Source: a bacterium
Lineage (GTDB): Bacteria; Patescibacteriota; Saccharimonadia; Saccharimonadales; Saccharimonadaceae
NCBI GenBank assembly: GCA_030429935.1
Contig: JAUIGH010000001.1
Location: forward strand, 1 to 46,357
Reading direction: 5' to 3'
Length of the DNA stretch: 46,357 nucleotides
Shown here piece by piece: positions 13,251 to 32,597 of this stretch. Below the pieces are notes generated by a model. That model was not told the origin of the DNA and did not search any database. It worked only from the letters and a program-made list of their open reading frames with translations. The translations under genes and the position numbers were made by a program. Numbering within the stretch: the first letter of the stretch is position 1; every line of letters starts with the position of its first letter.

Positions 13251-13325
13251 TGGGGTGTCGCCAAGTGGTAAGGCACTGGATTTTGGTTCCAGCATTCGGG
13301 GGTTCGAATCCCTCCACCCCAGCCA
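13251..13325 (+). tRNA. tRNA-Gln (anticodon UUG), CCA encoded
   Basis: TGGGGTG-TC-GCCAAGTGGTAAGGC-A-CTGGA-TTTTGGT-TCCAG-CATTC-GGGGG-TTCGAAT-CCCTC-CACCCCA-G-CCA. Close to the canonical bacterial tRNA-Gln. Confidence 0.9.
13304..13320 (+). repeat. left copy of the 17-nt direct repeat (attL-like, inside tRNA-Gln)
   Basis: tcgaatccctccacccc, identical to 30149-30165. Confidence 0.8.
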
Positions 13326-13459: not shown

Positions 13460-13979
13460 CTACAGGCTTATTTTAATATTTTTCCATACAAGGCCATTGT
13501 CGTCGATGTACGGCACGCCGTCCTCTTTGAAGCCTAGGGACTTGTTAAGGTTGATGACGGGCGTGTTATTGGCCAAGTGGCGAGAATAGATGGTTTTCAA
13601 CTCGAAGGTGTTCTTTATGTAATTAACAGCTGCTTGCATAGCAGACTTCCCGATACCCTTGCCGCGATAGTCAGGGTTACCGATCATGATATGAATACTT
13701 GGCGGCTGTACATGGTGATTCTCGAATAGCTCAATCCAGACAAGACCGATCGTCTTTTGATCGATAATAATCATGCGAGCCCTCTTGCTCTAGGCTGATA
13801 AACTCACGCATAATAGCCATTTCACCTTCAAGCGTGGATGGCTCAATTTCACTATTGGCGTTACCCATGCTTAAGAGTGTGGCGTGGCCTTCTGGCCTTT
13901 GAAACCAGCTTAGTGCAAAGAGCGCATCTCTATCTGGGTCGGGTGATAACAGTTGAATGCTCGAATCGTTAGATTGCAT
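13460..13979 (-). pseudogene. GNAT N-acetyltransferase split by one frameshift
   Basis: Two overlapping ORFs (13731-13979 and 13460-13774) join into one GNAT-like protein if 1 nt is removed near 13775-13785. The acetyl-CoA motif is IGNPDYRGKGIGKSAM. Confidence 0.55.
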
Positions 13980-13988
13980 AATGACTCC

Positions 13989-15200
13989 TCATTCATTTAG
14001 TGTAGAGTGTATGGCTTCTTCGAGTAGGTTAAGCCCCTCGATTAGCACCTCTTCACTAATAGTTAATGCTGGTATGAATTTAACAACCTCATCTTTTGCT
14101 CCTACTGTTTCAATGACGAGTTTTCTTCGAAACAAAGCTTTGTAATGGTTTTTGCCATCTCCGCTTCCGGAAAACGAGTCCACACGAGAGGCCGCGTCCT
14201 CGGACCGTCGTGAAGGTTTCGAGATAAAGATCTTTTATTCTCTCTAGTCTTTCGCGAACAATTTTCTCTTTTCATTTCACTTCCGCTGAAAGCTCGTCCG
14301 ACCGCCAGAACTTTTCAAGTGCCTTGAGGCCGGCGACAATGCAAGATTATTACCCCGAAATGTGCCGTTAGGCTGCCCTGGCTTCCATATATCTAACTCT
14401 GGTTTAAGGAGTACGAGCGCCATAGGTAGGCCAAAGCCGGAAATTGACTTTGATAAGACGACATCTGGGTGTGTTTCGGCAAACTCAAAGCTAAAGAAAT
14501 CTCCAGTTCGTCCGCACCCTGCCTGGACATCGTCGACAATAAGAAGAATGCCCCTCCTAGCTGTTAAGTCGCGAAGGCGCTTTATCCACTCGGCGCTAGC
14601 GACATTTACACCCCCTTCACCTTGAAAAAGTTCAACAATGACAACTGCTGGCAGATCGACGCCGCTACTTGGGTCATCAAGAACTTTTTCTAAATATGCA
14701 ATATTGTCTAATCCATCAAAGTAGTTGTCATAAGGGGGAAAGACGGTGTCACTTAAAGGGGTACTAGAGGCGTTCCGGAACCATGAGCTGGACGTTGCTG
14801 CGAGCGAGCCTGAAATGAGTGACTAAATGCAATGACATTATGTAGTCCTGTTGCAAGACGAGCGATTTCCAGGGCTGCTTCAACTGCATTAGTGCCAGTG
14901 GGGCCAGTAAATTGAAGTTTATAGTCAAGAACGCGAAGTGTGAGGATGGTTGTCGTAAACTCCTTGATGAACGTAGCCTTAACCCTAGTGGCCATATCAA
15001 GTCCATGGATAATGCCATTACTCTGGAGATACTCGATCAGTGCCCGGACCATCGTTGGTTCGTTGTGTCCGTAATTGAGTGCGCCAGCGCCACGAAGAAA
15101 TCGATATAGCGACGCCGCTCGTCATCCCATATATAGGATCCTTCTGCCTAAAAGAGCGAAACTGAGAAAGAGCGAACACATCTTATTACATTTGATTCGT
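13989..15200 (-). pseudogene. class-III aminotransferase (diaminobutyrate--2-oxoglutarate transaminase-like), multiply frameshifted
   Basis: Minus-strand fragments in different frames: IDFF/GAGALNYGHNEPTMVRALIEYL, LQFTGPTGTNAVEAALEIAR, LLIVDDVQAGCGRTGDFFSFEFAETHPDVVLSKSISGFGLPMA..GQPNGTFRGNN, VKFIPALTISEEVLIEGLNLLEEAI. At least four frameshifts and in-frame stops. Confidence 0.75.
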
Positions 15201-15276
15201 ACTGATCGATTACGTCTGACGCTGTATTCGTGCTGTAATTTTACCAGAAATCAGCTTGTACGGTTATAATGTAGGT

Positions 15277-16707
15277 ATGAACTACGATTATGTCATTGTT
15301 GGTGGCGGTGCAATTGGGCTGGCTATAGCTTATCGACTCAAGAAATCCCACGAAGAGCGATCAGTACTAGTGCTTAATAGTAATGAAACTGGCACGGCAA
15401 GTCTTGCTTCGGGTGCTATGCTTGGCTGTTTTGGTGAAGTTACAAAATACACACTGAAAAACGAAGCTGGCAAAAAGAAATTTGACCTGATGTACGCTGC
15501 TCATAAGCAATGGGCGTCATGGCGCGAGGAAGTCGAAGCTTCAGCGCAACAATCTATCAGGCATACGCCTGGAAGCTATGTAATTCTTAACACCCACGGC
15601 GGATCCCTTGACGATGAAAACTTTGATGCAATGGTGCAAGCTTTGGTTAACTACGAAGAGCCTTATGAGTATGTTGCGCCGAAGGATATCCCGGGCCTCC
15701 ATCCAAATAATCTAGCCCGTCCACTTCGTGCAATTTATCTTCCAAATGAAGGTTCAATTGAAAGTAATCAATATGTTGAAGTGTTGAGAGTTGCCTGCCG
15801 GAATATTGGCATTACTCTCACAGACATTCACTCTCTTGGGGCTATTGAGCGCCGTGGTAATGATTATGTCGTGACTATTGACGATGAAACAAATATAACA
15901 ACGTCATCGGTGATTATTGCTACGGGCGCTTATACGAGCAGTGTCTTAGCAAAGGTGACGCCTACTGTCGGTGCAATGCCGGTGCTTGCTGGTAATGGCG
16001 TAGCTGCAGTAACAAAGCGTCAACTTGGTGAAGGCTTCAAGGCGACAGTGCGTACCGCGAATCGCGCAGGCTCCTGTGGGCTTCACATCGTACCAATGAG
16101 TGATGGGTGTGAATATATCGGTGCTACTAACGTTCTCTACAGCGAGCCCGAGGCGCGTATGACCGTTGGTCTCTCCCACTTCTTGTCCCAGTGTGCAATC
16201 GAGCAGCTTGACCTCAATATATATCACTCCTTCGTACAAACATGGCGCACAGGTAATCGTCCTGTTTCTTTGGACACCTTGCCACTGATTGGAAAAATAG
16301 ACGATCTGGGACTGTATGTTGCAACAGGGACGTATCGCGATGGACTTCACTGCTCACCTGTTATTGCGGATGCGCTAGTGGCCGTGATCGATGAGAGGGA
16401 AGCTCCATTGATCGAAAGCTTTAACCCGCAGCGAACTTTTACAGAGTTGATGTCGAAAGAAGTTTCTATGGACGAGTATGCTATGCAGGCAGTGTCCGGT
16501 GCCTATGAGAACTGGTATCGACCCGCATACTACATGAATGATGATGAAGTCTATAAGAGCGCTCGTCAGAAAGCCGCTGATATATACGACCAACTTCAGA
16601 TAAATGTTGGCCTTCATCCAGATATTCTTCTGCTTCTCTCTTCCGACGACTCAGCTATCGAGCGAGTAAGAGAGTATCTTCTGATTAACGAGGTGCAGGC
16701 GACATGA
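15277..16707 (+). CDS. FAD-dependent oxidoreductase (DAO / glycine-oxidase-like family)
   Basis: N-terminal Rossmann motif DYVIVGGGAIGLAIAYRL. 476 aa from ATG 15277. Confidence 0.75.
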   Translation: MNYDYVIVGGGAIGLAIAYRLKKSHEERSVLVLNSNETGTASLASGAMLGCFGEVTKYTLKNEAGKKKFDLMYAAHKQWASWREEVEASAQQSIRHTPGSYVILNTHGGSLDDENFDAMVQALVNYEEPYEYVAPKDIPGLHPNNLARPLRAIYLPNEGSIESNQYVEVLRVACRNIGITLTDIHSLGAIERRGNDYVVTIDDETNITTSSVIIATGAYTSSVLAKVTPTVGAMPVLAGNGVAAVTKRQLGEGFKATVRTANRAGSCGLHIVPMSDGCEYIGATNVLYSEPEARMTVGLSHFLSQCAIEQLDLNIYHSFVQTWRTGNRPVSLDTLPLIGKIDDLGLYVATGTYRDGLHCSPVIADALVAVIDEREAPLIESFNPQRTFTELMSKEVSMDEYAMQAVSGAYENWYRPAYYMNDDEVYKSARQKAADIYDQLQINVGLHPDILLLLSSDDSAIERVREYLLINEVQAT

Positions 16708-16973
16708 CGTCGGGTCGAGACCTTATTGACGCCGAGGGTCGTGTGACTCGCTGGCCTAAAAAATCCACTGAGCGCGAGCAGGTGCTTGGCTACCTGGCTT
16801 CAAAGTTCCAAAGCGACCGCACATACACAGAAATTGAAGTAAATGATATTTTGCGCCAGTGGCATACATATGAAGATTGGTCGTCTCTAAGACGCGATCT
16901 TATCGGTTACGGCTACGCAACTCGGGATAGAAATGGGCTCAAGTATCAATTTAAAGGACAGGGAGACGAATAG
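16704..16973 (+). CDS. DUF2087-like small protein
   Basis: RVTRWPKKSTEREQVLGYLASKF..YTEIEVNDIL...LRRDLIGYGY matches my memory of the DUF2087 pattern. The start overlaps the upstream stop (ATGA). Confidence 0.6.
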   Translation: MTSGRDLIDAEGRVTRWPKKSTEREQVLGYLASKFQSDRTYTEIEVNDILRQWHTYEDWSSLRRDLIGYGYATRDRNGLKYQFKGQGDE

Positions 16974-17479
16974 TGGAACAGATTCGTGACTACAGGCCGG
17001 ATACGGATGAAGCTGAAGTCTCAACACTCTTGAAAGAGTTTCAAGAACATCTCGCCACTGTCGATCAAGAAGATGAAATCCGAAGCTTTGTTTCTGATGC
17101 GGACGCACGCCGCTACCTAGATAAGATGGTCAATGATAGTACGGAAATGAATGGTAAGTTTTTGGTGCTCGAGCTGGATGGAAAGCTCGTTGGTTTCATT
17201 CAGGGGATCATTGACCCACGCAATGACCAAAGTGATGTCATGTACCAAACTACACACAATGCACAGATTGAGGGTTGGATCGGACTTGTCTATGTACGCC
17301 CCGAATATCGTGGACGTCGGTTTGGTATCAAGCTGATTGAGGCGATTAAGCAGCACTTTATAGCCAATGGCTGTACTACGCTCCGCCTCTTGGTTGCTCG
17401 CGATAATACTAATACGGTCAACTTCTATCACAAATATGGATTTACTGACCGCGACGTAGAAATGGCTATGCCGTTATAG
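16973..17479 (+). CDS. GNAT family N-acetyltransferase
   Basis: VYVRPEYRGRRFGIKLIEAI...NFYHKYGF. The GTG start overlaps the upstream TAG by 1 nt. Confidence 0.8.
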   Translation: MEQIRDYRPDTDEAEVSTLLKEFQEHLATVDQEDEIRSFVSDADARRYLDKMVNDSTEMNGKFLVLELDGKLVGFIQGIIDPRNDQSDVMYQTTHNAQIEGWIGLVYVRPEYRGRRFGIKLIEAIKQHFIANGCTTLRLLVARDNTNTVNFYHKYGFTDRDVEMAMPL

Positions 17480-17482
17480 ATC

Positions 17483-20400
17483 ATGACTAAAGCAGGCCGA
17501 CCACTTTATGCGTTTGTAGATGATTGTGCAGTACAGTGGCCTGAGATGCCTGCGCTTAGGGATGAACAGTATGTATATACCTATGGTGAGCTGAGTAAGC
17601 TTTCAAGTTACTTTGCTCATCGTATTTGTGCGACAGGTGACGTTGCGGGAAAGCACATCGGCCTGCTGTACGATCGCTCGGCCCAAAGTATTATCTTGTT
17701 GTTGGCTATTATGAAAGCCGGGGGTGTGTATGTTCCTCTCAACCGGGCATTGCCAAAAGATCGTCTTATGGAAATGGTGAGTGGAGCGGATATCACCCTT
17801 GTCGTCACTCCGGATGAGCCTTCTATTGCTATGGACCAGCCCACTATTGCTCTTGCGCCGATTGATCCTTTGCATGTCGCTATTCAGCCTCCGCTGCTTG
17901 CTAGTGAGGCACTAGCCTATGCAATTTTCACCTCTGGCTCAACGGGAATGCCGAAGCTTGCTCTGTTGAGGCACGAGGCTGTTGTGCATGTTATGACAGC
18001 GTTAGCTGAACGATATTATATCGCACGCAATGATCGTATGCTACAGTTCGCTAATCTCTCATTTGACGGGTCAATATCAGAAATCTTTGGTGCTTTTATC
18101 GCTGGCGCCGAGCTTATTATTCCGGGTGAGCAAACGACGCAAAGTCTTACGCGGCTGGCTGCCTATTTTGATAGCGAGGCTGTGAGTGTTGCTGTTTTGC
18201 CACCCTCGCTTCTTGCACACCTTCCGCTTAGCTTTCGGTCCTTAAAGACTATCGTTGTTGCGGGCGAAGCGTGCTCCTCTTCTCTTGCAAGAACGGTCAC
18301 AAAGCAAGTGCCGCATTTTATTAATGCATATGGTCCGACGGAATGTTCAATTTGTGTTTCAACCTATGAGGTGCCAAAAGATTTCGACGGAAGCATCATT
18401 CCAATCGGCGAGCCGCTCCCCGGCGTGAATACGGTCATACTGGATGAAAAAGGCCAGCCCGTCGCAAATGGAGTGACCGGTGAGCTGTATGTGGGCGGCC
18501 CTAGTCTATTTGATGGGTACTATAATGACTCGGCAAAAACATCTGCTGCGCTCATTCAGCGCGGGGCTGAGGGCCTATTTTATAAAACAGGTGACTATGT
18601 GACTCTTGAGGGTAAAATCCTTACGTACGTATCTCGATCCGATGATTATATAAAACTCCACGGCCTTCGTATCTCTCCCCTTGAGATTGAGGAAGCGATT
18701 CGGCACTCGGACGATTCTATTCGTGGTGCAGCTGTGGTATTGGTTGAGGATGGAGACGACAATAGTCTTGCTGCTTTCTATGAGAGCGCGCACGAGCTAC
18801 CTGTTGATGATATTCTTCAGTCGATAAAGCGCCAATTGCCGGCATATGCGGTGCCGCATAAGATTGTGCATCTTGCACACCTTCCGCTGACTGACAACAA
18901 AAAGATTAACCGTCGTGCACTTGCTGCACAGGTGCGGCCAAGTCTCGAACCGGCGCCAGCTTCGGATTCCTCTCTACGCGCGCTTTGGCAAACTACTCTA
19001 CGGGTGTCCATTGACGATGCAACTGATTTCTTCTTGGCGGGTGGCGACTCGCTGAAGGCGATGCGGTTAATTGCTGAAGTTGATCGGCAGTATGGAACAA
19101 GCTTAAACCTTGTGGATCTCTATAACCACTCCACCTTTGGTGATTTTTCTGCTCACATTGAAGCCTCTTCACCTTCGGCGTCTTTACGATCATACAACCC
19201 ACAGGACCTAACTCCATACGAGGTAATGATGTGGAGCGCGTCTGCACACTCGGGTAACGCAGGGGCGTACACGCTTGTGGAGGTTGTAGAGCCATATTTT
19301 GATGTAGACCCTATGCGACTTAAGCAAGCTATTGCGGCACTGTCTGATAACTTTTCTGCTGCATCGTATCGCTACATCCTTGGTGAGAATGGGCTTGAGA
19401 AACAACTGGCTTCAGGAATTAGTTTTGTTAATCATGGCGATCTCACTAGGGCGGAAGGTGACGCACTCGCCACTTCTCTTGCAAACGCTGGCATAGACCT
19501 TGCTGCCGATGCGCTCATTACAGTTCATTTTGCGCTTATTGACGCGTCCCCTACTATTATCATTCATGCTCATCATATTGTACTTAGTGCAAGTATTCTG
19601 AAGCTCTTTGTGGATGAGCTCTGGCAACGCTATGCTGGCTTGGCCGTAGTGCAGAGGGTCGAGGAAGCGCCTCGAGAATTCACCGAAGACGATTTAGCGT
19701 TTTGGAAAAAAGCTTACGACTCCACCGCTGATTATGTGCAATTGCCATGGAGCGGTATTCGGCAGCCAAAACCAAAGAACGACGGAGCTACCTTTGTAAC
19801 GACAATCGATGTATCTATGAATCGGCTAGTGTCAGAGCTTGGTATTACAAAATTTGTCTTTTACCGAAGTGTCTTCGCTCTTCTCCTCCATAGGCTTACT
19901 GGCCAACCTTCTTTTTACATTGGTAGCTCAGTTGATGTGCGTCATGGTGACTTCTTAGGGGCTCAGCCGGCAATGCTTAATTCACTACCTATTCTCTCTG
20001 TTCTTGAAAGTGAGCAGACGTTTAAGAGTTTTATCCTCGAGACACAGCAGGCTGTGCGGGCCGCCCTTAGTCATTGCCATGTACCCCTTCATGACATTAT
20101 GAAGCTTCACATATTTGAGCAAGATCGTCTCGTCGGTCCTTTTAACGTCTTGTTTGATTACGTCGAGAAGCCTAACTCTTACGAAATGCCCGGGCTTGGC
20201 ACTATTGATAGCAAGCAGTGGTTTAATTCCAGCGCTAAGCACGACCTGACTCTTACAGTTGTTGAATCGTCGGGCACTGAGTTGCAGTGGGAGTACGATA
20301 CTGACCTTCTGGATGAACGAACTGTGCAGCAATTTGCAACTATCTTCACCCACCTCTGTCATACGGTTCTGCACGACTTGCACGCTCCGATCGCTTCCCT

Positions 20401-23400
20401 CCCGCTTCTTGACGAGGGTGAGCGAGTGGCTATGCTAAGCATTGGCAGGGGTGAGACTCGAGCCCGCTCGGCAAGCTCATTCTACGAGCGGTTCTCTGAT
20501 ATGGTGAGGCGGCAACCCGATGCAATTGCTGTGCGACACCAGGGGCACAGCACAACGTATCAAGATCTGCACTACCTCGTGGAGCACTTCTCGGCAATTC
20601 TTGTGGAACAGGAACTGTCCTCAGACGCTCCTGTGGGAGTTTTTATGGAGAGGTCTCCGGAAATGGTCGCCATCATTGTTGCGCTTTGGAGGCTGGGCTA
20701 TGCGTATGTGCCTATCGAAACAACCCTCCCATTGCAACGTATCCGCTCAATTATTGAAACAACTCGAATGTCGCTTATGGTGACGAAAGTTACGCACCGG
20801 GCAAAGCTTCCTGTTGATAATATGCGGATTATCGATGAAACACATCAGCCGAAGACGATCTATACTCCCGAGACTACAGTATCGCCAAATACGCTTGCGT
20901 ATGTCATCTTTACTTCGGGATCCACGGGAACGCCTAAGGGCGTCATGATTGAGCACGCGGGTATGATGAACCACGCTGAAGGTATGATCGAATATCTCGC
21001 GCTTGATAATGCGTCGACGATTGCGCAGACTGCCTCGCATTCATTTGATATTTCTGTGTGGCAATTAACTACAATACTTATTGCTGGTGGAACGATTGCA
21101 ATCTATTCGAAAGACGAGCAAAGCAATCTCGATAGTTTTACGACGCGGCTTTTTGAGGACCGGGTCACTTTGTTGGAGCTCGTGCCATCATACATCAATA
21201 TCCTCCTCGAATATCTTGAGGATACGCACAATCAGCAGAAGCTAAAGAACATTGACGCCCTCATCTCGACGGGTGAGAACATCTCGTGGCCTATTGTCGA
21301 GGGTTGGCTGCAAAACATGCCAGGGAGTCGTTTAATGAATGCCTACGGACCGGCCGAGGCATCTGATGACACTAACTTGTTTACATTTAAAGATCTATCG
21401 GCAATGCAGCGACGAGGTCTTCCGGTTGGTGCTTCCCTTGCTAATGTTAATGCTTACGTTCTAGATGAAGCGCTAAATCCTCAACCAATTGGTGTGCAGG
21501 GTGAAATCTATATTGCAGGCATTGCAGTGGGCCGAGGATATATTAATGATCCTGAGCGAACTCGCAAGAGCTTTATTAGCAATCCTCACACGGGTGAGCG
21601 TATGTATAAAACGGGCGACCTTGGCTATTGGTCCTCGGAGGGTCAACTTGTGTATTTAGGGCGCTCTGACTTTCAGGTCAAAATTCGAGGCTTCCGGATC
21701 GAACTCGAAGAAATTGAGGCCCACATCATTCGCTACCCTCATATTACGTCAGTAGCGGTAATGGTGGTTGACCGGAATAATTCCAAGCAGCTCCACGCTT
21801 ATGTCACTGCTGATATAGATATTGATAGTAGTGTGGTGCTAAGTCATCTTCGCGACCATCTCCCTGACTATATGGTTCCTTCGAGTATTGTTCAGTTATC
21901 GGCTCTGCCGTTAAACAATAGTGGAAAGATTGATCGTCATTTTCTTGCCAACAAAGAGCGTCTGCGTTTCAAGGAAGTTGAGGAAATTGCTGGGCCGAGC
22001 GTTGAAGAAGCAGCAGTAATGGCGGTATGGCGCGAAGTCTTTGGGTTGGATTATATGACGGTTGACGATGACTACTATGCGCTTGGCGGAGACTCGATTA
22101 CGTCTTTTCGCGTCTATGCCAAGCTCAGCGCAAAGGGCTACCAGCTTACTCTTCAGGACATCCTTGCCTTCCCTATCCTGAAAGACTTCGCGAGAACCAT
22201 GACATCTGAGTCAGTTGACGTGCGGCAGGTACCTCGGATCGACAAGGCATTATTGCCGACACCGATTCAATCCCGACTCCTGGCTGCCGGGTCTAAAGAA
22301 GTAATGGCGCAGAATATTAGTCTCAAAGGTCACTGGGAGCGTGAGCGACTTAATACTGCTATCCAGGCGTCGGCACGGAACCAAGGTGTCTTTTATCTGA
22401 TGTTCGACGCAGATGGACAGCGCTTTGGCCTGGAGCCCCAATTCAAAGAGGCATATGCATTCGTTGAGTCATCTGTTGCTGAGGATGATGCTTTTGACAG
22501 GCTGAACAGGGAGCTGACGCGGAGTGTGGTTTTTGCTTATGGTGCCGAGGGTGACGACACTACAGTAAGGGCGCTTTACCTGTCGGCGAATCATTTGGTA
22601 ATGGATGTAGTGTCATGGAATATCTTTATTGCCGCGGTGAACGATGCGTATGAGGCGACGTCACGTGTCGATAATGATATCGATTACACATTTGGCTCAT
22701 GGGCACAGGCCATGCAAGATGCTGATGACCCTTCGTCTGAAATATTAGACTATTGGCGGGGTGTTCTTTTGCAAACGGTTGATGCGACGCGTGCATTAAA
22801 GCAACTTTTTGTTTACGACATTCCTGATCGGCAACTCTTTACGATGGACGCACCCCTTCCTCTGGTACAATTTACAGACGCGTCGGTTTATCTAGCCGTA
22901 TTACAAGCGCTTGCGCAAGTCCTTGATATTGCTCAGTCGGGGATATTAATAGAAACTCATGGACGGTACGGGGAGGTGTTAGGCATTGACCTCTCAAAGA
23001 CGGTGGGGTGGTTTACTCACCTCTTACCCCTGACTGGGGCGACTAGCCGTGATATTGAATCTATTCTTCGTGTAGACAATATGACTAAAGTGGCTTATGG
23101 CTTGGCAACTCAACGAGATTTACTGAATCGCGAACTAGAGCCACTAGTGGTTGTAAACTATCTTGGCAAATCTTCTAATATGAGTGGCTATGCTATGCGC
23201 CATAGTGCCCAGGAGAGGCCGATCGGCAAAGAATTACTGGAGCTGTCTATCTATGAAGACGGCTCGAATTTGTGCATTAAAGTCGTGCTCTATGCGACAC
23301 CGAAGGAGGATGAATTTGTACAGAAACTCCTTACTGCTATTACCCGGCAGCTCTCTGCGGGTGAGGCTAATTTAGAAAAAAGTCGTCTTGATGCTATTTT

Positions 23401-23428
23401 GAAAAGAATCGGAGCAAACTGTGGATAG
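17483..23428 (+). CDS. non-ribosomal peptide synthetase, two modules: A-T-C-A-T-E
   Basis: A1 motifs: AYAIFTSGSTGMPK, FDGSISE, NAYGPTE, GELYVGG, YKTGD, SRSDDYIKLHGLRISPLEIE. T1 is GGDSL (Ser523, nt 19049-19051). C-like motif HHIVLSA (aa 697-703). A2 motifs: LAYVIFTSGSTGTPKG, FDISVWQ, NAYGPAEASDD, GEIYIAG, YKTGD, GRSDFQVKIRGFRIELEEIE, NSGKIDR. T2 is GGDSI (Ser1538). The E-like domain has LPTPIQ and NHLVMDVVSW. Confidence 0.9.
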   Translation: MTKAGRPLYAFVDDCAVQWPEMPALRDEQYVYTYGELSKLSSYFAHRICATGDVAGKHIGLLYDRSAQSIILLLAIMKAGGVYVPLNRALPKDRLMEMVSGADITLVVTPDEPSIAMDQPTIALAPIDPLHVAIQPPLLASEALAYAIFTSGSTGMPKLALLRHEAVVHVMTALAERYYIARNDRMLQFANLSFDGSISEIFGAFIAGAELIIPGEQTTQSLTRLAAYFDSEAVSVAVLPPSLLAHLPLSFRSLKTIVVAGEACSSSLARTVTKQVPHFINAYGPTECSICVSTYEVPKDFDGSIIPIGEPLPGVNTVILDEKGQPVANGVTGELYVGGPSLFDGYYNDSAKTSAALIQRGAEGLFYKTGDYVTLEGKILTYVSRSDDYIKLHGLRISPLEIEEAIRHSDDSIRGAAVVLVEDGDDNSLAAFYESAHELPVDDILQSIKRQLPAYAVPHKIVHLAHLPLTDNKKINRRALAAQVRPSLEPAPASDSSLRALWQTTLRVSIDDATDFFLAGGDSLKAMRLIAEVDRQYGTSLNLVDLYNHSTFGDFSAHIEASSPSASLRSYNPQDLTPYEVMMWSASAHSGNAGAYTLVEVVEPYFDVDPMRLKQAIAALSDNFSAASYRYILGENGLEKQLASGISFVNHGDLTRAEGDALATSLANAGIDLAADALITVHFALIDASPTIIIHAHHIVLSASILKLFVDELWQRYAGLAVVQRVEEAPREFTEDDLAFWKKAYDSTADYVQLPWSGIRQPKPKNDGATFVTTIDVSMNRLVSELGITKFVFYRSVFALLLHRLTGQPSFYIGSSVDVRHGDFLGAQPAMLNSLPILSVLESEQTFKSFILETQQAVRAALSHCHVPLHDIMKLHIFEQDRLVGPFNVLFDYVEKPNSYEMPGLGTIDSKQWFNSSAKHDLTLTVVESSGTELQWEYDTDLLDERTVQQFATIFTHLCHTVLHDLHAPIASLPLLDEGERVAMLSIGRGETRARSASSFYERFSDMVRRQPDAIAVRHQGHSTTYQDLHYLVEHFSAILVEQELSSDAPVGVFMERSPEMVAIIVALWRLGYAYVPIETTLPLQRIRSIIETTRMSLMVTKVTHRAKLPVDNMRIIDETHQPKTIYTPETTVSPNTLAYVIFTSGSTGTPKGVMIEHAGMMNHAEGMIEYLALDNASTIAQTASHSFDISVWQLTTILIAGGTIAIYSKDEQSNLDSFTTRLFEDRVTLLELVPSYINILLEYLEDTHNQQKLKNIDALISTGENISWPIVEGWLQNMPGSRLMNAYGPAEASDDTNLFTFKDLSAMQRRGLPVGASLANVNAYVLDEALNPQPIGVQGEIYIAGIAVGRGYINDPERTRKSFISNPHTGERMYKTGDLGYWSSEGQLVYLGRSDFQVKIRGFRIELEEIEAHIIRYPHITSVAVMVVDRNNSKQLHAYVTADIDIDSSVVLSHLRDHLPDYMVPSSIVQLSALPLNNSGKIDRHFLANKERLRFKEVEEIAGPSVEEAAVMAVWREVFGLDYMTVDDDYYALGGDSITSFRVYAKLSAKGYQLTLQDILAFPILKDFARTMTSESVDVRQVPRIDKALLPTPIQSRLLAAGSKEVMAQNISLKGHWERERLNTAIQASARNQGVFYLMFDADGQRFGLEPQFKEAYAFVESSVAEDDAFDRLNRELTRSVVFAYGAEGDDTTVRALYLSANHLVMDVVSWNIFIAAVNDAYEATSRVDNDIDYTFGSWAQAMQDADDPSSEILDYWRGVLLQTVDATRALKQLFVYDIPDRQLFTMDAPLPLVQFTDASVYLAVLQALAQVLDIAQSGILIETHGRYGEVLGIDLSKTVGWFTHLLPLTGATSRDIESILRVDNMTKVAYGLATQRDLLNRELEPLVVVNYLGKSSNMSGYAMRHSAQERPIGKELLELSIYEDGSNLCIKVVLYATPKEDEFVQKLLTAITRQLSAGEANLEKSRLDAILKRIGANCG

Positions 23429-26270
23429 TCCAATTACTGACATTGTGCCTGCAACTCCCGTACAGCATGGGTTGCTCTATGTTGAGCGTTCGTATGCAAA
23501 AGGCTCGCTCTATCATGAGCAGTACATTGCTAAGTTGGCGGGCCCCCTGGACCTGGGCCGTCTAGAAATTGCATGGCAAAAAACCGTTGCTGCACACACT
23601 ATTTTGCGAACTATTTTTGACTGGGATGGACAAAATGAACCGATGCAAATTGTACTGCGGCATTATGCTGCGCCGTTTGTTGTTATGGCTGATCCGCTGG
23701 AGGAGAATGAACGTACGGCATTTGTAGAGCGGGACGCTCAGGATTCATTTCAATTTGATACAACTCCACCCCATCGACTCACTCTCATGAAGCTCGATGA
23801 TCAGACGCACTGGCTAGTTTTTACCTACCACCATCTATTACTAGATGGCTCCTCAGTCTCGGCGTTATTTGATTACTTGGCATGGCAGTATAATCAGCCG
23901 TCCGAAGTGCGAGAAATTAATGACTACGGCGCATACTCTCGTTGGATACAGAGTTATAGGCAACAGGAAAATTCTGTTGATGCGTGGCATAGCTATGCCG
24001 AGGGTATTAGTCTCCCAGCTTCGCTGGTGCAAGAATATAGCAATGATCAGACTCGCGAGCATTATCAGTATATTGATCGCGAGGCGGTAGATCGGCTGGT
24101 CGCTGCGGCTCGTGCGCATCACCTCACGCTTAACAGTATTTGTCAGGTTATGTGGGCATATACATTTGCGCTGAGTCGTGAGCAGCCACAGGTGTGCGCT
24201 GGTTCACCGACAATGGTCAAGCCACTTGATAGCAGCCTGGATTCTGTAGTGGGTCTTTGTATTAATACATTGCCTTATATACTCTCGTTCGATCGCGAGC
24301 AATCTCTGGTTGATATTGCTGTGCGGCATCAACAGAACTGGGGAGGGCTTATCGAGCACTCTCGAATCGGGCTCGCTGAGATCAAGAAAGCTATTGGATA
24401 TCATCACTATGGCGATCCGTTCGACACCATACTAACGTACACGGACGCTCGTGACAGAATACTCCCTAGGCTTGATGGTGTAGATTGGCGGGTCCTGTCG
24501 CATAATGAAGTAACTCAATATCCCCTATCGCTGGACGTTGTTTATGATGTTCATTCAATTGAATTAAAAGCAACCTACAGAGATGCTCACTATAATGCAC
24601 CGACCATTTCACGTCTTGTGCAGTCTTTTGCTGATAATCTTAGCCTTTTCATTGAACACCCCGATACCATTCCTCACCTTCGGTCTTATACTGATGTAGA
24701 TGACGAGACTGTTGCCCCTCAGGGAAGCGGGCGTGAGGCACTGACCGAGAAAATTGCACAGATATGGACGGATGTATTCGGCGTTGAAGTTGGATATGAT
24801 TCAAACTTTTTCGACCTTGGTGGTGACTCAATTAGCTCTCTTCGTATTGTCAGTAAACTCCTTGAGGCGGGCGTTACGGCTTCGATGCGCGATGTCTTCG
24901 ATTCACCGACCCCGGAGCTGCTTGCTCGAGTGGTGTTATCGACCGCAATAGATGACCCTGTTACGCACATGGATCTGCCTGCAAGCGTTGAGGAGAAGGC
25001 TCGTCAGTTATACGGAAGCAATATTAGTGCAGTTGTCCGCGCTTCGAGTGTCCAGCAAGGCATTATCCGTCGTCCATCATCCAAGCAGAATTTATATCAT
25101 GACCAATCAACGTTTACCTACAAAGGCCGCTTGGACCCTGAACTATTTGAAAAAGCGTGGAACATTGCTGCACATAAAAATGACGCGATGCGCATGCGAT
25201 ATTTTTCGAAGGACGATGTGTGGTATGTGTGTGCGTTAAAAGACAGCGCCATATCTATGCGGTATTTCGACCTCAGGGATACACCACGACAGAGCGAGGC
25301 TATACAGCGCGCTATTGAAGACGACTTGGCGACGCCTTTTAATCTTCAGCGCGACCCACTTATTAGACTAAGGCTATATCGAACTGGCGATGAGACACAC
25401 GTTCTCTTTTTGAGTTTCCATATTCTTGTTACCGACGGTTGGAGCTTTGCTTTCATGATGGACGATGTTTTCACTGCCTACGAACACCTTATTGAGGAGC
25501 GATCGTTCGATCTTCCTAGTCGCCGCCTGACATATGTTGACTATCTCCACTCGCTTACGGTGAGCGATACTATTTCCGGTCGCCAGCATTGGTCTCAATA
25601 TCTCCATGATGCTGCGGGAGCTAAGGGTGTGTCGATCTCAAATTTTTCAAACCTTGACGTGGTTTTTGCTCATCTTGACGGAGACGAGACGGATGTAATT
25701 CAGCGGTTTGCAAGTGCAAAGAAGCTATCACTCAACTCGGTCGTGCAGGCTGCTTGGGCAACAATTAACGCACGACAATCGGAACCGGTTATATTTGGTG
25801 CAACAACGTCCGCTCGTTTGCTTCATGGTGTCAATTACGACGATACTGTTGGTCTTTTCTTTAATGACATCCCTATTATTGCTCATGTCGAGGGTCGGAG
25901 TATTGAGCAGCTGGCAAATATAATTCAGCGTGATTTTCAGACGAACCTAAAGTATAGCTACGTATCTTCTTATGATATTGCGGAGATGGTGGGTCGGGAT
26001 CCCGAAGAAGCGCCATATGATAGTCTTATTGTTTTCGAAAACTACCCTAAGATGCAGGAAGATAGCCTGAAAGAATCCCGCCGTGGTGGAGTGATGAATA
26101 CGGACTATTGGCGACGGGACATGGCCGACATTCCAATGACGTTGTATGTAGAGGTGCGCAATGGCGTGACAGACATTAAACTTTCTTATAACAATACCGT
26201 CGTTTCTCGTGATGTTGCTCAGGGGCTTGTCGATGAGTTTATGCGGACGTTAAAGGTATGTACATTGTAG
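23421..26270 (+). CDS. NRPS protein with C-T-C architecture (no adenylation domain)
   Basis: The GTG start overlaps the upstream stop. C2 has PATPVQHGLLY and a canonical HHLLLDG (aa 137-143). T3 is LGGDSIS (Ser470). C3 has SFHILVTDGWS (aa 665-675). Confidence 0.85.
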   Translation: MDSPITDIVPATPVQHGLLYVERSYAKGSLYHEQYIAKLAGPLDLGRLEIAWQKTVAAHTILRTIFDWDGQNEPMQIVLRHYAAPFVVMADPLEENERTAFVERDAQDSFQFDTTPPHRLTLMKLDDQTHWLVFTYHHLLLDGSSVSALFDYLAWQYNQPSEVREINDYGAYSRWIQSYRQQENSVDAWHSYAEGISLPASLVQEYSNDQTREHYQYIDREAVDRLVAAARAHHLTLNSICQVMWAYTFALSREQPQVCAGSPTMVKPLDSSLDSVVGLCINTLPYILSFDREQSLVDIAVRHQQNWGGLIEHSRIGLAEIKKAIGYHHYGDPFDTILTYTDARDRILPRLDGVDWRVLSHNEVTQYPLSLDVVYDVHSIELKATYRDAHYNAPTISRLVQSFADNLSLFIEHPDTIPHLRSYTDVDDETVAPQGSGREALTEKIAQIWTDVFGVEVGYDSNFFDLGGDSISSLRIVSKLLEAGVTASMRDVFDSPTPELLARVVLSTAIDDPVTHMDLPASVEEKARQLYGSNISAVVRASSVQQGIIRRPSSKQNLYHDQSTFTYKGRLDPELFEKAWNIAAHKNDAMRMRYFSKDDVWYVCALKDSAISMRYFDLRDTPRQSEAIQRAIEDDLATPFNLQRDPLIRLRLYRTGDETHVLFLSFHILVTDGWSFAFMMDDVFTAYEHLIEERSFDLPSRRLTYVDYLHSLTVSDTISGRQHWSQYLHDAAGAKGVSISNFSNLDVVFAHLDGDETDVIQRFASAKKLSLNSVVQAAWATINARQSEPVIFGATTSARLLHGVNYDDTVGLFFNDIPIIAHVEGRSIEQLANIIQRDFQTNLKYSYVSSYDIAEMVGRDPEEAPYDSLIVFENYPKMQEDSLKESRRGGVMNTDYWRRDMADIPMTLYVEVRNGVTDIKLSYNNTVVSRDVAQGLVDEFMRTLKVCTL

Positions 26271-26968
26271 CGCTTCTTGATATTAGGCTAGTAAATGATG
26301 GGATTAAGACAAAGGCCGTGTCCCTCTTGTCGCCTGAGGAAATGGAGCGTTATGGGAGATTCCGTCATGCGTCCGATGCTAATCTATTTCTTTTTGGTCG
26401 GTTTCTTGCGCGCTGTCTTGTTTCCCGTGTCGCCACGAGGCGACCTGAAGATGTTGCAATCCTGGTTGCCGGTACCGCAACTAAGCCCTATGAGTCGCAG
26501 CGGCTGATAGAGTTTAGCATTTCACACAGTGGAACCTTTGTGGCAGTTGCTGTCTCTCAGCGACCGGTTGGTATCGACGCACAGGTGCACGACCAGACAC
26601 GGACTGATGTGTTTGATAGATTCTTTACTGCTGAAGAAAAAGGCTACGCCCACCAGTCGTTGAAGAATTTTTATAGATTATGGACGTCTGTGGAGTCGCT
26701 AGCAAAGATTACAGAGCTCGGCTTCAATGAAGCGCTCATGAATCGTACCCCCCGGTTCAAGAGTGATTTGAGTGGCTACACTTTCAATCAGACAAGCTAT
26801 TACATAAGTACGCTCGTTCAAACAGAGGATCTGACATTATCTGTCGTTACAGCTGAAGACGTGCTCTTTCGGAAGTACCCGTCAGCGAGAGAGGGACTCC
26901 TTGCTGGGATCGATACTGATGAGCTTTCACTTGAAGTTTACTCTGGGAGTGTAGACTCTGACGTGTAG
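26258..26968 (+). CDS. 4'-phosphopantetheinyl transferase, Sfp type
   Basis: FSISHSGTFVAVAV...VGIDAQ and WTSVESLAKITELG resemble the Sfp-family core motifs. The start overlaps the upstream gene by 13 nt. Confidence 0.75.
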   Translation: MYIVALLDIRLVNDGIKTKAVSLLSPEEMERYGRFRHASDANLFLFGRFLARCLVSRVATRRPEDVAILVAGTATKPYESQRLIEFSISHSGTFVAVAVSQRPVGIDAQVHDQTRTDVFDRFFTAEEKGYAHQSLKNFYRLWTSVESLAKITELGFNEALMNRTPRFKSDLSGYTFNQTSYYISTLVQTEDLTLSVVTAEDVLFRKYPSAREGLLAGIDTDELSLEVYSGSVDSDV

Positions 26969-27975
26969 ACTTCGGCGTCACGTATATTGGCGCCGGTTTC
27001 AAATCCTCTTACAAATGAGGCGAATGCACCTGGTGTGACATCGTGGTTGTATCCACCGCCCATAATAACGAGAGTGCGCATGTTCATGTGACCAAGGCGG
27101 TCTCCAATTTCGGCATATTCCTGATCATCCAAATGGGTTAGTGGTGGCAGGCCTGGCCACTCGCGAGTATGGCCGTCAAACCCTGCTTCGATAATAAGGT
27201 AGTCGGCACCAAATGACTTAATCTTTTCTTGGGCACGTGCTAATAATTCGAAGTATTCCTCGTTTGAGATGCCAATAGGAAATGGAAGATTAAGGATGGT
27301 CCCCTCTCCTTCGCCAATGCCAGTCTCGTCTGCATGGCCAGTGTGTGGGAAGATCTCATTGGGATCGGCATGAAGGGATACGTAAAGGACCTCTGATTCA
27401 TCTTGAAAGATGTCCTGGATGCCATCACCGTGATGAACATCAAAATCCAGGATTGCAACTCGTTTGCCTGCTTCTTTGAATGCCTCGGCGGCAACGGCGG
27501 CATTATTGAAGAAACAAAAGCCATGATAGAACTCTCGCCCTGCGTGATGTCCGGGTGGTCGAGAGACGGCAATTGTAAGGCGCTTCTCTTCATCGTTCAG
27601 CAGTGCGTCGGCCGCAGCTAGAGATGCTTCGGCCGAAAAGAGGGCTTGCTCAAATGTGCCTGGATAAATTGCCGAAGCATTTGTCTCAGTGTCGCGGTCA
27701 TACGGCGACTTTAATGGGTTGTTATCTGTTGCTTGTAGACCAGTCTCATATATGGCTTGTATCATTACGGGTGAATGAAGTTTTGAGACAATGGCATAAG
27801 TTTCCTTGTGGACTTCAGGGACTACTACCCACTCTGTAGGAATGGTGTCGGAGAGGAGTTCATTTATGATGCCGTAAAGCCGCTCTGGAACATCCCATGG
27901 CTGTCCCTCGTCATCAATCCATCCCTTATGCTTGTAATGCTCGGAGTTATGGTACACGTGTCGTTCGGCTGGCAT
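26938..27975 (-). CDS. histone-deacetylase-family amidohydrolase (AcuC / acetylpolyamine amidohydrolase-like)
   Basis: RPPGHHAGREFYHGFCFFNNAAV, DFDVHHGDGIQDIF, SLHADP..FPHTGH. Start chosen at ATG 27975. The 3' end overlaps the PPTase 3' end by 31 nt. Confidence 0.8.
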   Translation of the reverse strand: MPAERHVYHNSEHYKHKGWIDDEGQPWDVPERLYGIINELLSDTIPTEWVVVPEVHKETYAIVSKLHSPVMIQAIYETGLQATDNNPLKSPYDRDTETNASAIYPGTFEQALFSAEASLAAADALLNDEEKRLTIAVSRPPGHHAGREFYHGFCFFNNAAVAAEAFKEAGKRVAILDFDVHHGDGIQDIFQDESEVLYVSLHADPNEIFPHTGHADETGIGEGEGTILNLPFPIGISNEEYFELLARAQEKIKSFGADYLIIEAGFDGHTREWPGLPPLTHLDDQEYAEIGDRLGHMNMRTLVIMGGGYNHDVTPGAFASFVRGFETGANIRDAEVYTSESTLPE

Positions 27976-28162: not shown

Positions 28163-29140
28163 TTAAACTCGTATCGATTCTCGATTATGGAGTGCAAGCT
28201 TTAAGTTAAGATTTCGTATGAGTTGTGTTTCCTCGAAGAGCGTTCCGTCCTGAACGACGTATTTTATGTAGGCACCAATTGCATCCTCTTCTCTATAAGA
28301 ATCACTTGTCGCTCTGATGATCTTTGTGAACTTGTCTATGGCAATACGTAGGTCTGGCTCAAGGGCCTCAATGTCTGTGATGAGATTATTGCAATGCTTG
28401 ATAAGCCCGTTTACAATATCTCGCTCGCGTCCAAACGGTTCTTTGCAGTCATAGTCAACCTGTCTTGAGCAATGATAGTACATAAAGACACCTACTGTGC
28501 CATTCTTGTACTTTTTCTTGCGTTCTTCGCAGACGATCGTTGAGCCGCAGCTGTAGCAGGTCATGAAGCGCTTATACGGAAATTCTTTTGCACCCCATTT
28601 GGATTTCATAGGCACTTTTAGTTGTTCTTGAACTATGTCAAACAAGTCCTTTGTAATTAGTGGCTCGTGACTGCCTTCGTACCATTGGCCACTGTCTTTG
28701 GGAAATTCAAATTTACCGTAGTAGTATGGATTTTTTAGTATTTTGTAAATCATACTCAGTGAGATGTGTTTTTCTTTTCGTGTCGTTACTGTATTATCTT
28801 CGAGCCATGACCGAATATGTCTTCCGCTCTTGCCGTTGGCTGACATTTCGAACATCTGCCTGATATATGGCGCTCGCAGCTCGTCAATAATGACATCTCG
28901 ACCATTACCACTTCCTCGCGTGAAGTAGCCGAGCGGTAGTATGCATAGCCGCCACCCCATTTCGCATTTGGCTCGGATGCCACGCTTTACGTTGATCGCC
29001 CGGTTATCGTTTTCAAGCTTTTCAATGTAGTCGTTAACCGCATGGGCTGGCTGTGATTTAACATGTTTATCTTTTTCCTGCAGGTTTTTACGCAAAGACC
29101 TAAGACTATCAATATAAGATGATAGCTGGTTCTTGCTCAT
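28163..29140 (-). CDS. large-serine-recombinase C-terminal portion (recombinase domain + zinc ribbon); catalytic N-terminal domain absent
   Basis: LPLGYF...IDELRAPYIRQMFEM..GKSGRHIRSWLEDN...IYKILKNPYYYGKF and CYSCGS...YYHCSRQ fit the recombinase and zinc-ribbon domains. No YxRVSxxxQ-type serine catalytic domain is found in the ORF or in the 260 nt upstream. Confidence 0.65.
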   Translation of the reverse strand: MSKNQLSSYIDSLRSLRKNLQEKDKHVKSQPAHAVNDYIEKLENDNRAINVKRGIRAKCEMGWRLCILPLGYFTRGSGNGRDVIIDELRAPYIRQMFEMSANGKSGRHIRSWLEDNTVTTRKEKHISLSMIYKILKNPYYYGKFEFPKDSGQWYEGSHEPLITKDLFDIVQEQLKVPMKSKWGAKEFPYKRFMTCYSCGSTIVCEERKKKYKNGTVGVFMYYHCSRQVDYDCKEPFGRERDIVNGLIKHCNNLITDIEALEPDLRIAIDKFTKIIRATSDSYREEDAIGAYIKYVVQDGTLFEETQLIRNLNLKLALHNRESIRV

Positions 29141-29410: not shown

Positions 29411-29433
29411 ATTCCCGAACTGCTGCTGTGGAT

Positions 29434-29856
29434 CTACACGGTCACCTTGGGGCGGTAGCCCATGATGGCGACCATGCCCATGCCGGCGAGCTCGCGACCA
29501 TGCGGGTCGTCGTACTCCATGCCGAGCATAGTGCGCGGGTCCAGGATGTCCCACCAGCCCATGATCTTGCCGAAGGCGAAGAGCATGAACGCGCGGCGCT
29601 GGTCCCCCAGGGCTCCACCGGCGACGAGGTAGTTGATCTCCTCGCCGAGTGGCGGAACTGGCTGACCCCAGCTATCGCTGGGCCACTCCTTGAGGAGTTC
29701 GATCATCTCGGCGGCGTGCTCGTGGACCTTGGCGGTCTTCAGGGCGAGCGCCATGACGAAAAAGTTGAACACCTCGCTGCCCTCGACGGGCCGCTGGTCC
29801 TCATCCACCTCGCCGAGCGAGTCGACGAGAATGGCGTTGATTCGTGCGATATCCAT
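29434..29856 (-). CDS. hypothetical protein encoded by a high-GC, high-GC3 gene
   Basis: 140-aa minus-strand ORF with an AAAGGAAG RBS and a terminator. Third codon positions are almost all G/C, unlike the surrounding island. No family recognised. Confidence 0.6.
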   Translation of the reverse strand: MDIARINAILVDSLGEVDEDQRPVEGSEVFNFFVMALALKTAKVHEHAAEMIELLKEWPSDSWGQPVPPLGEEINYLVAGGALGDQRRAFMLFAFGKIMGWWDILDPRTMLGMEYDDPHGRELAGMGMVAIMGYRPKVTV

Positions 29857-29979
29857 CGCGGGTACTTCCTTTCAGTCGGGAACAATTATACTATATCATA
29901 TACATCAAATATAATCAATAGCATAGAGTCTACATCTCGTGTCTCATTTCAGGTATCAGATCCGTATGCTTAGCCATGG

Positions 29980-30148: not shown

Positions 30149-30165
30149 TCGAATCCCTCCACCCC
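30149..30165 (+). repeat. right copy of the 17-nt direct repeat (attR-like tRNA-Gln 3' remnant)
   Basis: tcgaatccctccacccc followed by gcca. The preceding bases (gtgac) cannot form the T stem, so this is a remnant and not a tRNA. Confidence 0.8.
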
Positions 30166-32595: not shown

Positions 32596-32597
32596 CG

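Follow-up and report, generated by a model that had tools for sequence, protein, structure and literature searches.

A putative tRNA-integrated island in a Saccharibacteria contig carries a two-protein nonribosomal peptide synthetase with an orphan carrier and a terminal condensation domain lacking the second histidine

Two overlapping genes encoding nonribosomal peptide synthetases (NRPSs) were analysed in a 46,357-nt stretch of the bacterial contig JAUIGH010000001.1 (assembly GCA_030429935.1), hereafter the window. Both are encoded on the + strand. The first, NRPS1 (17483..23428, 1981 aa), reads A1-T1-C1-A2-T2-E, and the second, NRPS2 (23421..26270, 949 aa), begins with GTG, overlaps the NRPS1 stop by 8 nt and reads C2-T3-C3 (A, adenylation; T, carrier; C, condensation; E, epimerisation). 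Pfam was run on both whole proteins and on nine sub-segments, and the hidden Markov model (HMM) matches agree with the motifs on this order, which is the one given in the original prediction; neither a missed A or thioesterase (TE) domain nor a different order turned up. The pair holds three carriers and two A domains rather than one A domain per carrier, and T3 is the carrier that has no cognate A domain in the island. A third A domain and any TE, reductase (R) or heterocyclisation (Cy) domain were likewise predicted to be missing, and HMM and motif analysis found none in the island that holds the genes or in the rest of the window. The models PF00975, alpha/beta-hydrolase and NAD_binding_4 had no match in either NRPS or in any open reading frame (ORF) of the island, and no further A or TE domain is encoded in any related cassette. 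Since the same two ORFs and the same domain order recur on independent contigs, from 97% to 30% identity, the architecture is not an artefact of assembly or of a frameshift.

In NRPS1, the two AMP-binding domains, A1 (residues 14-474, 17522-18904) and A2 (residues 1007-1482, 20501-21928), scored 228 and 235 bits and carry the A3, A5, A7 and A8 motifs. The carriers are PP-binding domains with a GGxS serine, namely T1 (residues 498-559, 18974-19159; Ser523 at 19049-19051), T2 (residues ~1511-1571, 22013-22195; Ser1538 at 22094-22096) and, in NRPS2, T3 (residues 443-504, 24747-24932; Ser470 at 24828-24830, where it had been placed by eye), and an Sfp-type 4'-phosphopantetheinyl transferase (PPTase) is encoded in the same operon. 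C1 (residues 583-984, 19229-20434) is divergent, with a match of 95 bits; its motif is HHIVLSA here, with D replaced by S, and HHIVTDA or HHIIMDA in distant members, the catalytic His being retained. C subtypes were assessed against an in-house reference set drawn from the fetched loci, which comprises 79 C domains that follow an E domain (post-E) and 177 that follow a carrier (post-T); 23 of the 30 top matches of C1 in it were of the LCL type, to which it leans. The E domain (22250-23407) gave a weak Condensation-superfamily match (38.9 bits), carries the motifs NHLVMDVVSW, ETHGRY, TVGWFT and NYLG, and matched only E domains in the PDB (TycA E, TycB3 E). Its catalytic His and Glu are kept as [N/H/S]HxxxD and E[T/S/R/K][H/N]GR in nine sequences, corresponding to intact HHxxxD and EGHGRE sites. 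At the junction, TPKED and a tail conserved as DRLxxILxRI in NRPS1, and ATPVQHG at the start of NRPS2, bear an unscored resemblance to COM-type docking motifs (TPSD at the E end and L(T/S)P(M/L)QEG at the C start, PMC11546977).

In NRPS2, C2 (residues 7-416, 23439-24668) has the only canonical HHxxxDG motif among the C domains of the pair (YHHLLLDG), and this motif, as YHHxxLDG, is invariant in the family. Its best PDB matches are post-E C domains that accept D-configured donors (McyB, PvdL C3, BacC, TycB1), and 25 of its 30 top matches in the in-house set were post-E C domains, against a background of 31%. The early suggestion that an E domain followed by a C domain starting with PATPVQHGLLY (residues 10-20 of NRPS2) marks a D-to-L junction is borne out by these matches, which support the assignment of C2 as a DCL-type domain. 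C2 then leads directly into T3, with no A domain between them (C2 ends at ~416 and T3 starts at ~443) and with an unconserved linker. T3 itself is the most conserved segment, with 26% invariant columns and an invariant Ser470, and it is nearer to T2 than to T1 in five of six lineages.

The last domain, C3 (residues 540-945, 25038-26255), differs from C2 at its active site. HMMER alignment to the C domains of SrfA and BacC, together with family alignments, places its motif F666-H-I-L-V-T-D-G-W674 at 25416..25442 on the + strand, and aligning SFHILVTDGW of C3 with SYHHIILDGW of SrfA sets Ile668 at the position of the catalytic second His of HHxxxDG. Across all members of the family the motif is F-[H/S/N]-[I/L/V]-x-x-x-D-G-W, so that the second His is absent everywhere and the first is variable. 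C3 is nevertheless about as invariant as the catalytic C2 (15% vs 13% invariant columns) and keeps D672-G673-W674, FFND, ENYPK and WRR in every member. A structure model gave a complete C domain (pLDDT 83.8, pTM 0.82) with TM scores of 0.81-0.83 to PvdL C3 (the best), SrfA-C, TycB1 and CmnI (0.81). Based on its motif, C3 is read as something other than a canonical condensation catalyst. A compensating base was sought in His560 of the invariant LYHDQS motif of C3, and rejected, as it aligns with the ordinary YxEQ motif of C2, SrfA and BacC.

The pocket residues of both A domains were read by alignment to the 1AMU sequence from the PDB, which gave the Stachelhaus codes DGSVVAAIC(K) for A1 and DIWEITADD(K) for A2. 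These are identical to the codes read by eye in the original prediction, which had held that neither could be assigned with confidence; that part does not stand for A2, and A1 also has recognisable neighbours. The A2 code strings had no match in the full-text literature, and the assignment was therefore checked on the PvdL sequence in the PDB. The last module of PvdL puts L-2,4-diaminobutyrate (Dab) into the pyoverdine chromophore precursor. The PvdL A3 pocket, read from the solved PvdL E2-C3-A3 structures, is DIWELTADD, and A2 is identical to it at eight of nine positions (HMMER alignment to 9up2/9lcp), with Dab-type acidic residues at 278, 330 and 331; the A2 codes of the relatives L088, L089 and L095 agree with it at all nine. 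A gene for an EctB-type L-2,4-diaminobutyrate:2-oxoglutarate transaminase also belongs to the cassette. Against TIGR02407, the EctB equivalog (cut-off 552), the 420-aa orthologue at the related locus L085 reaches 640 bits; the gene is intact in the cassettes of L085, L086, L088 and L002, and in L089 and L095 an Aminotran_3 gene stands at the same place beside the GNAT3 gene. In addition, A domains of the A2 code class are paired with EctB-like genes at two unrelated loci, L007 and L084. Because of the PvdL-like pocket, the EctB gene of the cassette and this recurrent pairing, Dab is a well-supported prediction for the substrate of A2.

For A1, the pocket region is nearest to the Phe domains of GrsA (67 bits) and TycA (65 bits), and it has Ser in place of their Trp239, with Gly at position 236 and Val at position 278. 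When ~270 A domains of the fetched loci were compared, the codes closest to it were DASVVAAVC and DTSKVAAIC, both of which we take to be Tyr- or hydroxy-Tyr-like. A1 is thus predicted, at lower confidence than A2, to activate Tyr or another large aromatic residue of the Phe/Tyr type. Directly after the deacetylase gene (see below), the 84%-identical relative has a gene for a PrnB/IDO-like haem enzyme (PF08933, 38.7 bits; L086 14602-15651, L087 10932-11981), which may provide an extra tailoring of an aromatic or indole residue.

The NRPS genes are part of a + strand operon in the order DAO, DUF2087, GNAT, NRPS1, NRPS2, PPTase, in which most neighbours overlap or abut. Its first gene (15277..16707) encodes an FAD-dependent oxidoreductase of the DAO family (PF01266, 134 bits) that is distantly ThiO/glycine-oxidase-like (TIGR02352, 124 bits, below the cut-off). 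It is followed by an 89-aa DUF2087 protein (16704..16973), recognised from the precomputed Pfam assignments of its orthologues, and by a GNAT N-acetyltransferase of 168 aa (16973..17479; PF00583, 68 bits) whose gene ends 3 nt before NRPS1; these two are fused into one gene in L002/L003. The PPTase gene (26258..26968; PF22624 and PF01648) has its start overlapping the NRPS2 stop. Convergent to the operon, a gene for an HDAC-family Zn deacetylase (26938..27975, - strand; PF00850, 216 bits) overlaps the 3' end of the PPTase gene. This protein matches 6phr, 3q9b and 3men in the PDB at 150-160 bits, is nearest to bacterial acetylpolyamine amidohydrolases (APAH), has all the catalytic motifs (RPPGHHA, DFDVHHGDG, GFD, GGY) and carries no signal peptide. 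Upstream, on the - strand, lie a GNAT pseudogene of the Acetyltransf_3 type (13460..13979; 176 aa in relatives) and the EctB-type transaminase pseudogene (13989..15230), both delimited by tblastn and a gap map against L085. An MbtH-like protein is not encoded here, nor does the cassette hold a polyamine biosynthesis gene or a decarboxylase.

The family of this C-T-C protein is rare. Among 5.8 billion protein clusters, 11 full-length relatives were obtained, from 97% to 30% identity, and a profile search of the same set gave no members beyond these 11, the scores dropping from >1290 bits to 610. An exhaustive HMMER scan of 1.8 billion representatives added four members at 27-30% identity and a JGI scan one more, on a 250-kb contig. 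The family comprises ~15 sequence clusters. Within 185,579 GTDB species representatives only one true homologue was identified, in an uncultured Saccharibacteria metagenome-assembled genome (MAG); the other 79 loci of that scan are generic NRPSs at <=31% identity and were reused as the reference for codes and C subtypes. Almost all the named members are Saccharibacteria, namely 'Ca. Microsaccharimonas', 'Ca. Saccharibacteria' and the uncultured Saccharibacteria MAG. One member (P0002) is labelled 'Dongiaceae', which is probably a binning error, given its 84% identity to the window protein and its locus GC of 0.48.

A common gene set recurs with the C-T-C gene and consists of NRPS1 (A-T-C-A-T-E), the PPTase, the HDAC-like enzyme, DUF2087, one or two GNATs and Aminotran_3. 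The APAH-like deacetylase is present in every family context seen, and the GNAT(s) and usually the PPTase wherever the flanks are assembled. At 30-33% identity and a GC of 0.37 (L089, L095) the set is found in a different gene order, with a methyltransferase replacing the DAO oxidoreductase. At the other extreme, a member with a GC of 0.62 (L092 / L093; JGI 3300050308 and 3300050305) has the same A2 code and a His-less C3 and adjoins an MFS transporter, ISL3 and DDE transposases, Phage_rep_O, ParA and an S24 repressor; based on this neighbourhood, the NRPS pair also appears to reside on a mobile element outside the low-GC Saccharibacteria. The GC of the cassette locus spans 0.37 to 0.62, a difference of the size found between phyla. 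Exporter genes lie beside the cassette in two cases (ABC and FtsX in L088, MFS in L092).

The window itself is assigned to Saccharibacteria (TM7, candidate phyla radiation (CPR)), since the DnaB encoded in its flank shares 86-90% identity with the DnaB proteins of 'Candidatus Saccharimonas sp.' and of Patescibacteria MAGs; the flanks further hold housekeeping genes for ATP synthase epsilon, Dus, an AddA-like helicase-nuclease, CysRS, RecR and DnaX. The whole NRPS cluster lies in an island of 16.9 kb (~13.3-30.2 kb of the window) with a GC of 0.477 vs 0.541 in the flanks. At its left edge is a tRNA-Gln (UUG) gene (13251..13325, + strand; ARAGORN, Rfam tRNA 63.6 bits), and a repeat search located the left att copy, of 17 nt, within the 3' end of this gene at 13304-13320. 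The second copy, TCGAATCCCTCCACCCC, marks the right edge at 30149..30165 on the + strand; the 17-mer has two exact matches in the window vs 0 expected (100 shuffles). A large-serine-recombinase remnant (28163..29140, - strand) adjoins the right repeat. The low GC, the exact tRNA 3'-end repeat at both edges and the adjoining serine-recombinase gene together identify this segment as a predicted tRNA-integrated genomic island. The Saccharibacteria host, the tRNA-Gln island and the two pseudogenes are additions to the original prediction. The recombinase has only the PF07508 'Recombinase' domain and matches the CcrB profile from position 134 onwards; its lost resolvase catalytic domain (YxRxS motif) left no remnant in the upstream sequence, which was read in every frame. 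With the N-terminal catalytic domain gone, it is read as no longer a functional integrase, and due to this loss the island is probably fixed in place now. Compared with known tRNA-integrated islands with serine or tyrosine recombinases, the tRNA edge, the duplicated tRNA 3' end, the recombinase by the distal att site and the GC dip are alike; the differences are a recombinase without its catalytic domain and a cargo that is an NRPS cluster in a CPR genome.

The att 17-mer is absent from every other fetched locus, and common insertion sites could not be demonstrated. Two relatives have a tRNA gene within a few kb of the cassette (tRNA-Gln (CUG) at 9785-9856 in L090, tRNA-Asn at 16077-16151 in L001), which hints at repeated tRNA-targeted insertion across lineages. 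A scan of IMG/VR with the family profile returned no relative, and the element is thus not a recognisable phage; no match came from megablast either, whether the flank was compared with E. coli genomes or the island with PLSDB plasmids. Rfam matched only the two tRNAs over the window, and promoter-like or terminator-like sites were no more frequent than in shuffles. Some further ORFs were noted. Between the recombinase and the right att site, two overlapping ORFs (29428-29973, +, 181 aa; 29434-29856, -, 140 aa) have no Pfam match. Just beyond the right att site (31681-34232, +), a DrrA-like ABC ATPase and a 544-aa protein with no Pfam match could be an exporter or core genome. Far to the left, a 293-aa protein (703-1584, +) weakly matches PF18484, the cadmium carbonic anhydrase repeat, at 34.8 bits, which is not what one would expect in a Saccharibacterium.

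The state of this copy was assessed by comparison with L085, to which the window is colinear and 96.3% identical over 14.6 kb. In L085 the 176-aa GNAT and the 420-aa transaminase are both intact. In the window, the GNAT gene is split by an 11-nt deletion at 13779 and reads in two frames, and the EctB-type gene has deletions of 1, 1, 1, 3, 13 and 1 nt, its pieces lying in three frames. These seven separate deletions, together with the loss of the recombinase catalytic domain, could be taken to mean that the cluster is a decaying relic whose product is no longer made. We consider this highly improbable, as all 32 gap positions against L085 are confined to 13779-15256 (31 in the two pseudogenes and one at the DAO start) and the remaining 12.7 kb of the cassette have no indel. 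The 8.8-kb NRPS frames are intact and the dN/dS between the window and L085 is 0.17 for NRPS1 and 0.25 for NRPS2, with all seven intact genes between 0.09 and 0.33; the assembly line is under purifying selection. The pattern is read as loss of the genes for precursor supply in this copy, with the assembly line itself being kept up. Also, L001 has no transaminase and yet keeps the rest of the cassette, for which reason the transaminase looks dispensable, for instance if Dab were scavenged. As part of the overall explanation proposed below, which falls a little short of probable, the NRPS operon would be horizontally acquired and functional.

Several characterised systems share parts of this organisation. 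PvdL is similar in its A pocket, in having an aromatic residue next to Dab and in an E domain followed by a DCL domain, and its C3 is both among the best sequence matches of C2 and the best structural match of C3. However, the E domain of PvdL follows Tyr and not Dab, each of its carriers has its own A domain, its first module is an acyl ligase and its chain passes to further NRPSs, and the solved A3 structure is complexed with an MbtH-like protein according to the PDB titles. C-T modules without an A domain that are charged in trans are found in yersiniabactin HMWP1 (PCP3), viomycin/capreomycin VioI/CmnI and WS9326A. As in NRPS2, their C domain leads straight to a carrier that lacks an A domain, and one of the resident A domains has to supply several carriers; the systems for tuberactinomycins, moreover, handle diamino acids and have no TE, and CmnI is a top structural neighbour of C3. 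Here, in contrast, the A-less module has a protein to itself, on which it is flanked by a canonical DCL domain and by a terminal C domain that is His-less, and there is no stand-alone A domain or MbtH partner. Proteins of the C-T-E-C type with no A domain between C and T were also seen in P0012 (Kitasatospora) and P0035 (Actinophytocola); their A-less modules are unrelated to the C-T-C family.

The original prediction had compared the C-T-C end with VibF of vibriobactin. VibF (Cy-Cy-A-C-T-C) has a carrier loaded by its own A domain, an inactive first C domain and an active last one. The likeness comes down to the linear C-T-C string at the C-terminus and the lack of a TE and fails on every other defining feature, as in NRPS2 it is C2 that is canonical and C3 that is not, which is the reverse order, and there is no AMP-binding domain; Cy domains and genes for DHB/ArCP or norspermidine, as in the VibF type, were found neither in the window nor in related loci. 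A parallel for the terminus is given by C domains, terminal or free-standing, that capture amines (streptothricin ORF18, VibH and AngM/BasB). There, too, the final C domain comes after a carrier and has none downstream of it, and ORF18 also lacks the second His (PMC11546977). Differences remain in the I/L/V at the His position of C3, the non-conserved first His and the absence of an amine scaffold pathway from the cluster. All in all, the system is predicted to behave as a short NRPS in which one module has no A domain and a C domain does the off-loading; its parts are PvdL-like, and it differs from PvdL in their order, in the orphan carrier and in the terminus.

In the pathway that we tentatively propose, A1 would load a Phe- or Tyr-like aromatic amino acid on T1 and A2 would load L-2,4-diaminobutyrate on T2, after which C1 would couple the two and E would epimerise the Dab residue, which is expected to be D-configured in the product because E follows T2. 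NRPS1 would dock on NRPS2 through the E/C junction and the DCL-type C2 would move the aromatic-D-Dab chain to an aminoacyl group on T3. Since the mobile, self-contained cassette never carries a third A domain, T3 would be charged in trans by a resident A domain, A2 or A1; the resemblance of T3 to T2 weakly favours A2, which would give aromatic-D-Dab-Dab. The chain would then leave via C3. As C3 has a donor carrier and no acceptor carrier, the chain would be handed to an amine that is not carrier-bound. Taken as a whole, an aromatic-D-Dab-X chain built on a trans-charged T3 and off-loaded by a non-canonical C3 onto an untethered amine is a possibility nearly as strong as its opposite. Its product would probably be a small cationic diaminobutyrate peptide.

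Alternatively, the loader of T3 might be encoded elsewhere than on the island, as an A domain, an acyl-CoA ligase or a transferase, in which case the third block would be one that neither A1 nor A2 activates. The visible genome is limited to the 46 kb, and SyrB1/SyrC and stand-alone A domains are precedents for loading in trans. Such a loader is decidedly improbable, however, considering that the mobile cassette, with att sites here, insertion sequence (IS) and plasmid genes in L092 and varied neighbourhoods elsewhere, keeps its gene set and never includes a third A domain. The set is kept, usually with its own PPTase, over the whole GC range, and an extra NRPS A domain would be unlikely in a Saccharibacteria genome of ~1 Mb (none is reported in PMC8694215). 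A GNAT was considered as the loader of T3 as well and set aside, given the position of T3, which makes it acceptor for C2 and donor for C3, and since the tests gave no support for such loading.

Release through the terminal C3, as had been predicted, is plausible, although with Ile668 in place of the catalytic second His the textbook mechanism cannot apply. We ranked the options as intramolecular attack by a Dab amine, then a free amine, and then a C3 scaffold with spontaneous release. The first would use the Dab side-chain amine to give a lactam or a cyclic amidine and, although ranked highest, is in itself somewhat unlikely. In the second, which is the first of the two options in the original prediction, C3 would act like VibH, AngM/BasB and ORF18 and capture a soluble amine, for which a polyamine or a free amino acid (N-acetyl-Dab, for example) would qualify, with the APAH-like enzyme supplying or unmasking the amine. 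According to a review, the second His of C domains is not always essential, and streptothricin ORF18 (T-C, HQxxxDM), which has none, condenses a carrier-bound chain with a free amine (PMC11546977). The lack of a carrier downstream of C3 and the deacetylase with intact catalytic motifs in every family context, including those at 30% identity and with shuffled order, also speak for this option. On the other hand, the cassette provides no route to a polyamine, acetylation of the Dab side chain explains the deacetylase and the GNATs equally well, and the Ile of C3 differs from the ORF18 solution, so that we regard capture of a soluble amine as unlikely. The third option makes C3 a non-catalytic scaffold or dimerisation domain like VibF C1, with release either spontaneous, through hydrolysis or through a C-terminal Dab thioester closing on itself to a lactam, or due to an enzyme encoded elsewhere. 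In its favour, thioesters of Dab and Orn are prone to cyclisation, no member has the catalytic His and the cluster has no TE; yet a domain that is as conserved as the catalytic C2, with its invariant D672-G673-W674, FFND, ENYPK and WRR and a complete, confidently modelled fold, retains more than a spacer would need, and a scaffold role is improbable.

Within the pathway proposed above, the HDAC-like enzyme and the GNATs would most plausibly cycle acetyl groups on the primary amines of Dab or of the product, by acetylation and deacetylation, for protection or self-resistance, or perhaps in the handling of precursors. Several points weigh against this overall explanation. The pocket of A2 is one for Dab in its free form, and it does not account for the two GNATs or the deacetylase. 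C3 falls clearly into neither subtype, its 30 top matches being split into 11 DCL and 19 LCL; the likeness of T3 to T2 is modest and fails in L001, and the trans-loading of T3 has as its basis the absence of alternatives in the 46 kb and the conserved cassette. For a C domain with an aliphatic replacement of the second His we found no characterised catalytic precedent, ORF18 having Gln and not Ile. Moreover, with the transaminase and one GNAT pseudogenised, this copy may lack precursor supply or be starting to decay, its recombinase is truncated, and the products of all family members are predictions from sequence.

To our knowledge, CPR/Patescibacteria are generally described as being without NRPS or polyketide synthase (PKS) chemistry. 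A description of this NRPS cassette was not found in the searchable literature. No NRPS or PKS is reported in cultivated Saccharibacteria (PMC8694215) and no biosynthetic gene clusters (BGCs) in Patescibacteria MAGs (PMC11613949), while the BGCs of the CPR are mostly of the type that gives peptides made ribosomally and modified after translation (RiPPs) (PMC12153355). The intact cassette of ~13 kb would take up >1% of a typical Saccharibacteria genome; purifying selection conserves it across some ten lineages of Saccharibacteria, and it moves in the form of an island. Its main interest lies in the combination of an unexpected host, mobility, a predictable Dab product and a conserved His-less terminal C domain.

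Saccharibacteria are ultrasmall epibionts unable to make most amino acids. In the most far-reaching form of our explanation, they would maintain and exchange a self-contained NRPS island whose product, an aromatic-D-Dab-Dab cationic peptide or a cyclic amidine (a tetrahydropyrimidine, as in ectoine or the pyoverdine chromophore), is used against or on host bacteria, with C3 as a new His-independent cyclising or off-loading class and the GNAT and APAH-like pair protecting and deprotecting the Dab amines by acetylation; all of this together is doubtful. The island nevertheless offers a concrete candidate molecule for the effects of epibionts on their hosts or competitors, and one whose building blocks (an aromatic residue and D-Dab) are predictable enough for the product to be searched for by mass spectrometry. 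It also represents a compact, natural two-protein system in which the trans-charging of an A-less module and a His-less yet conserved terminal C domain can be studied. If the proposed role is true, C3 would constitute a new functional class of the C superfamily, off-loading without the HHxxxDG histidine.

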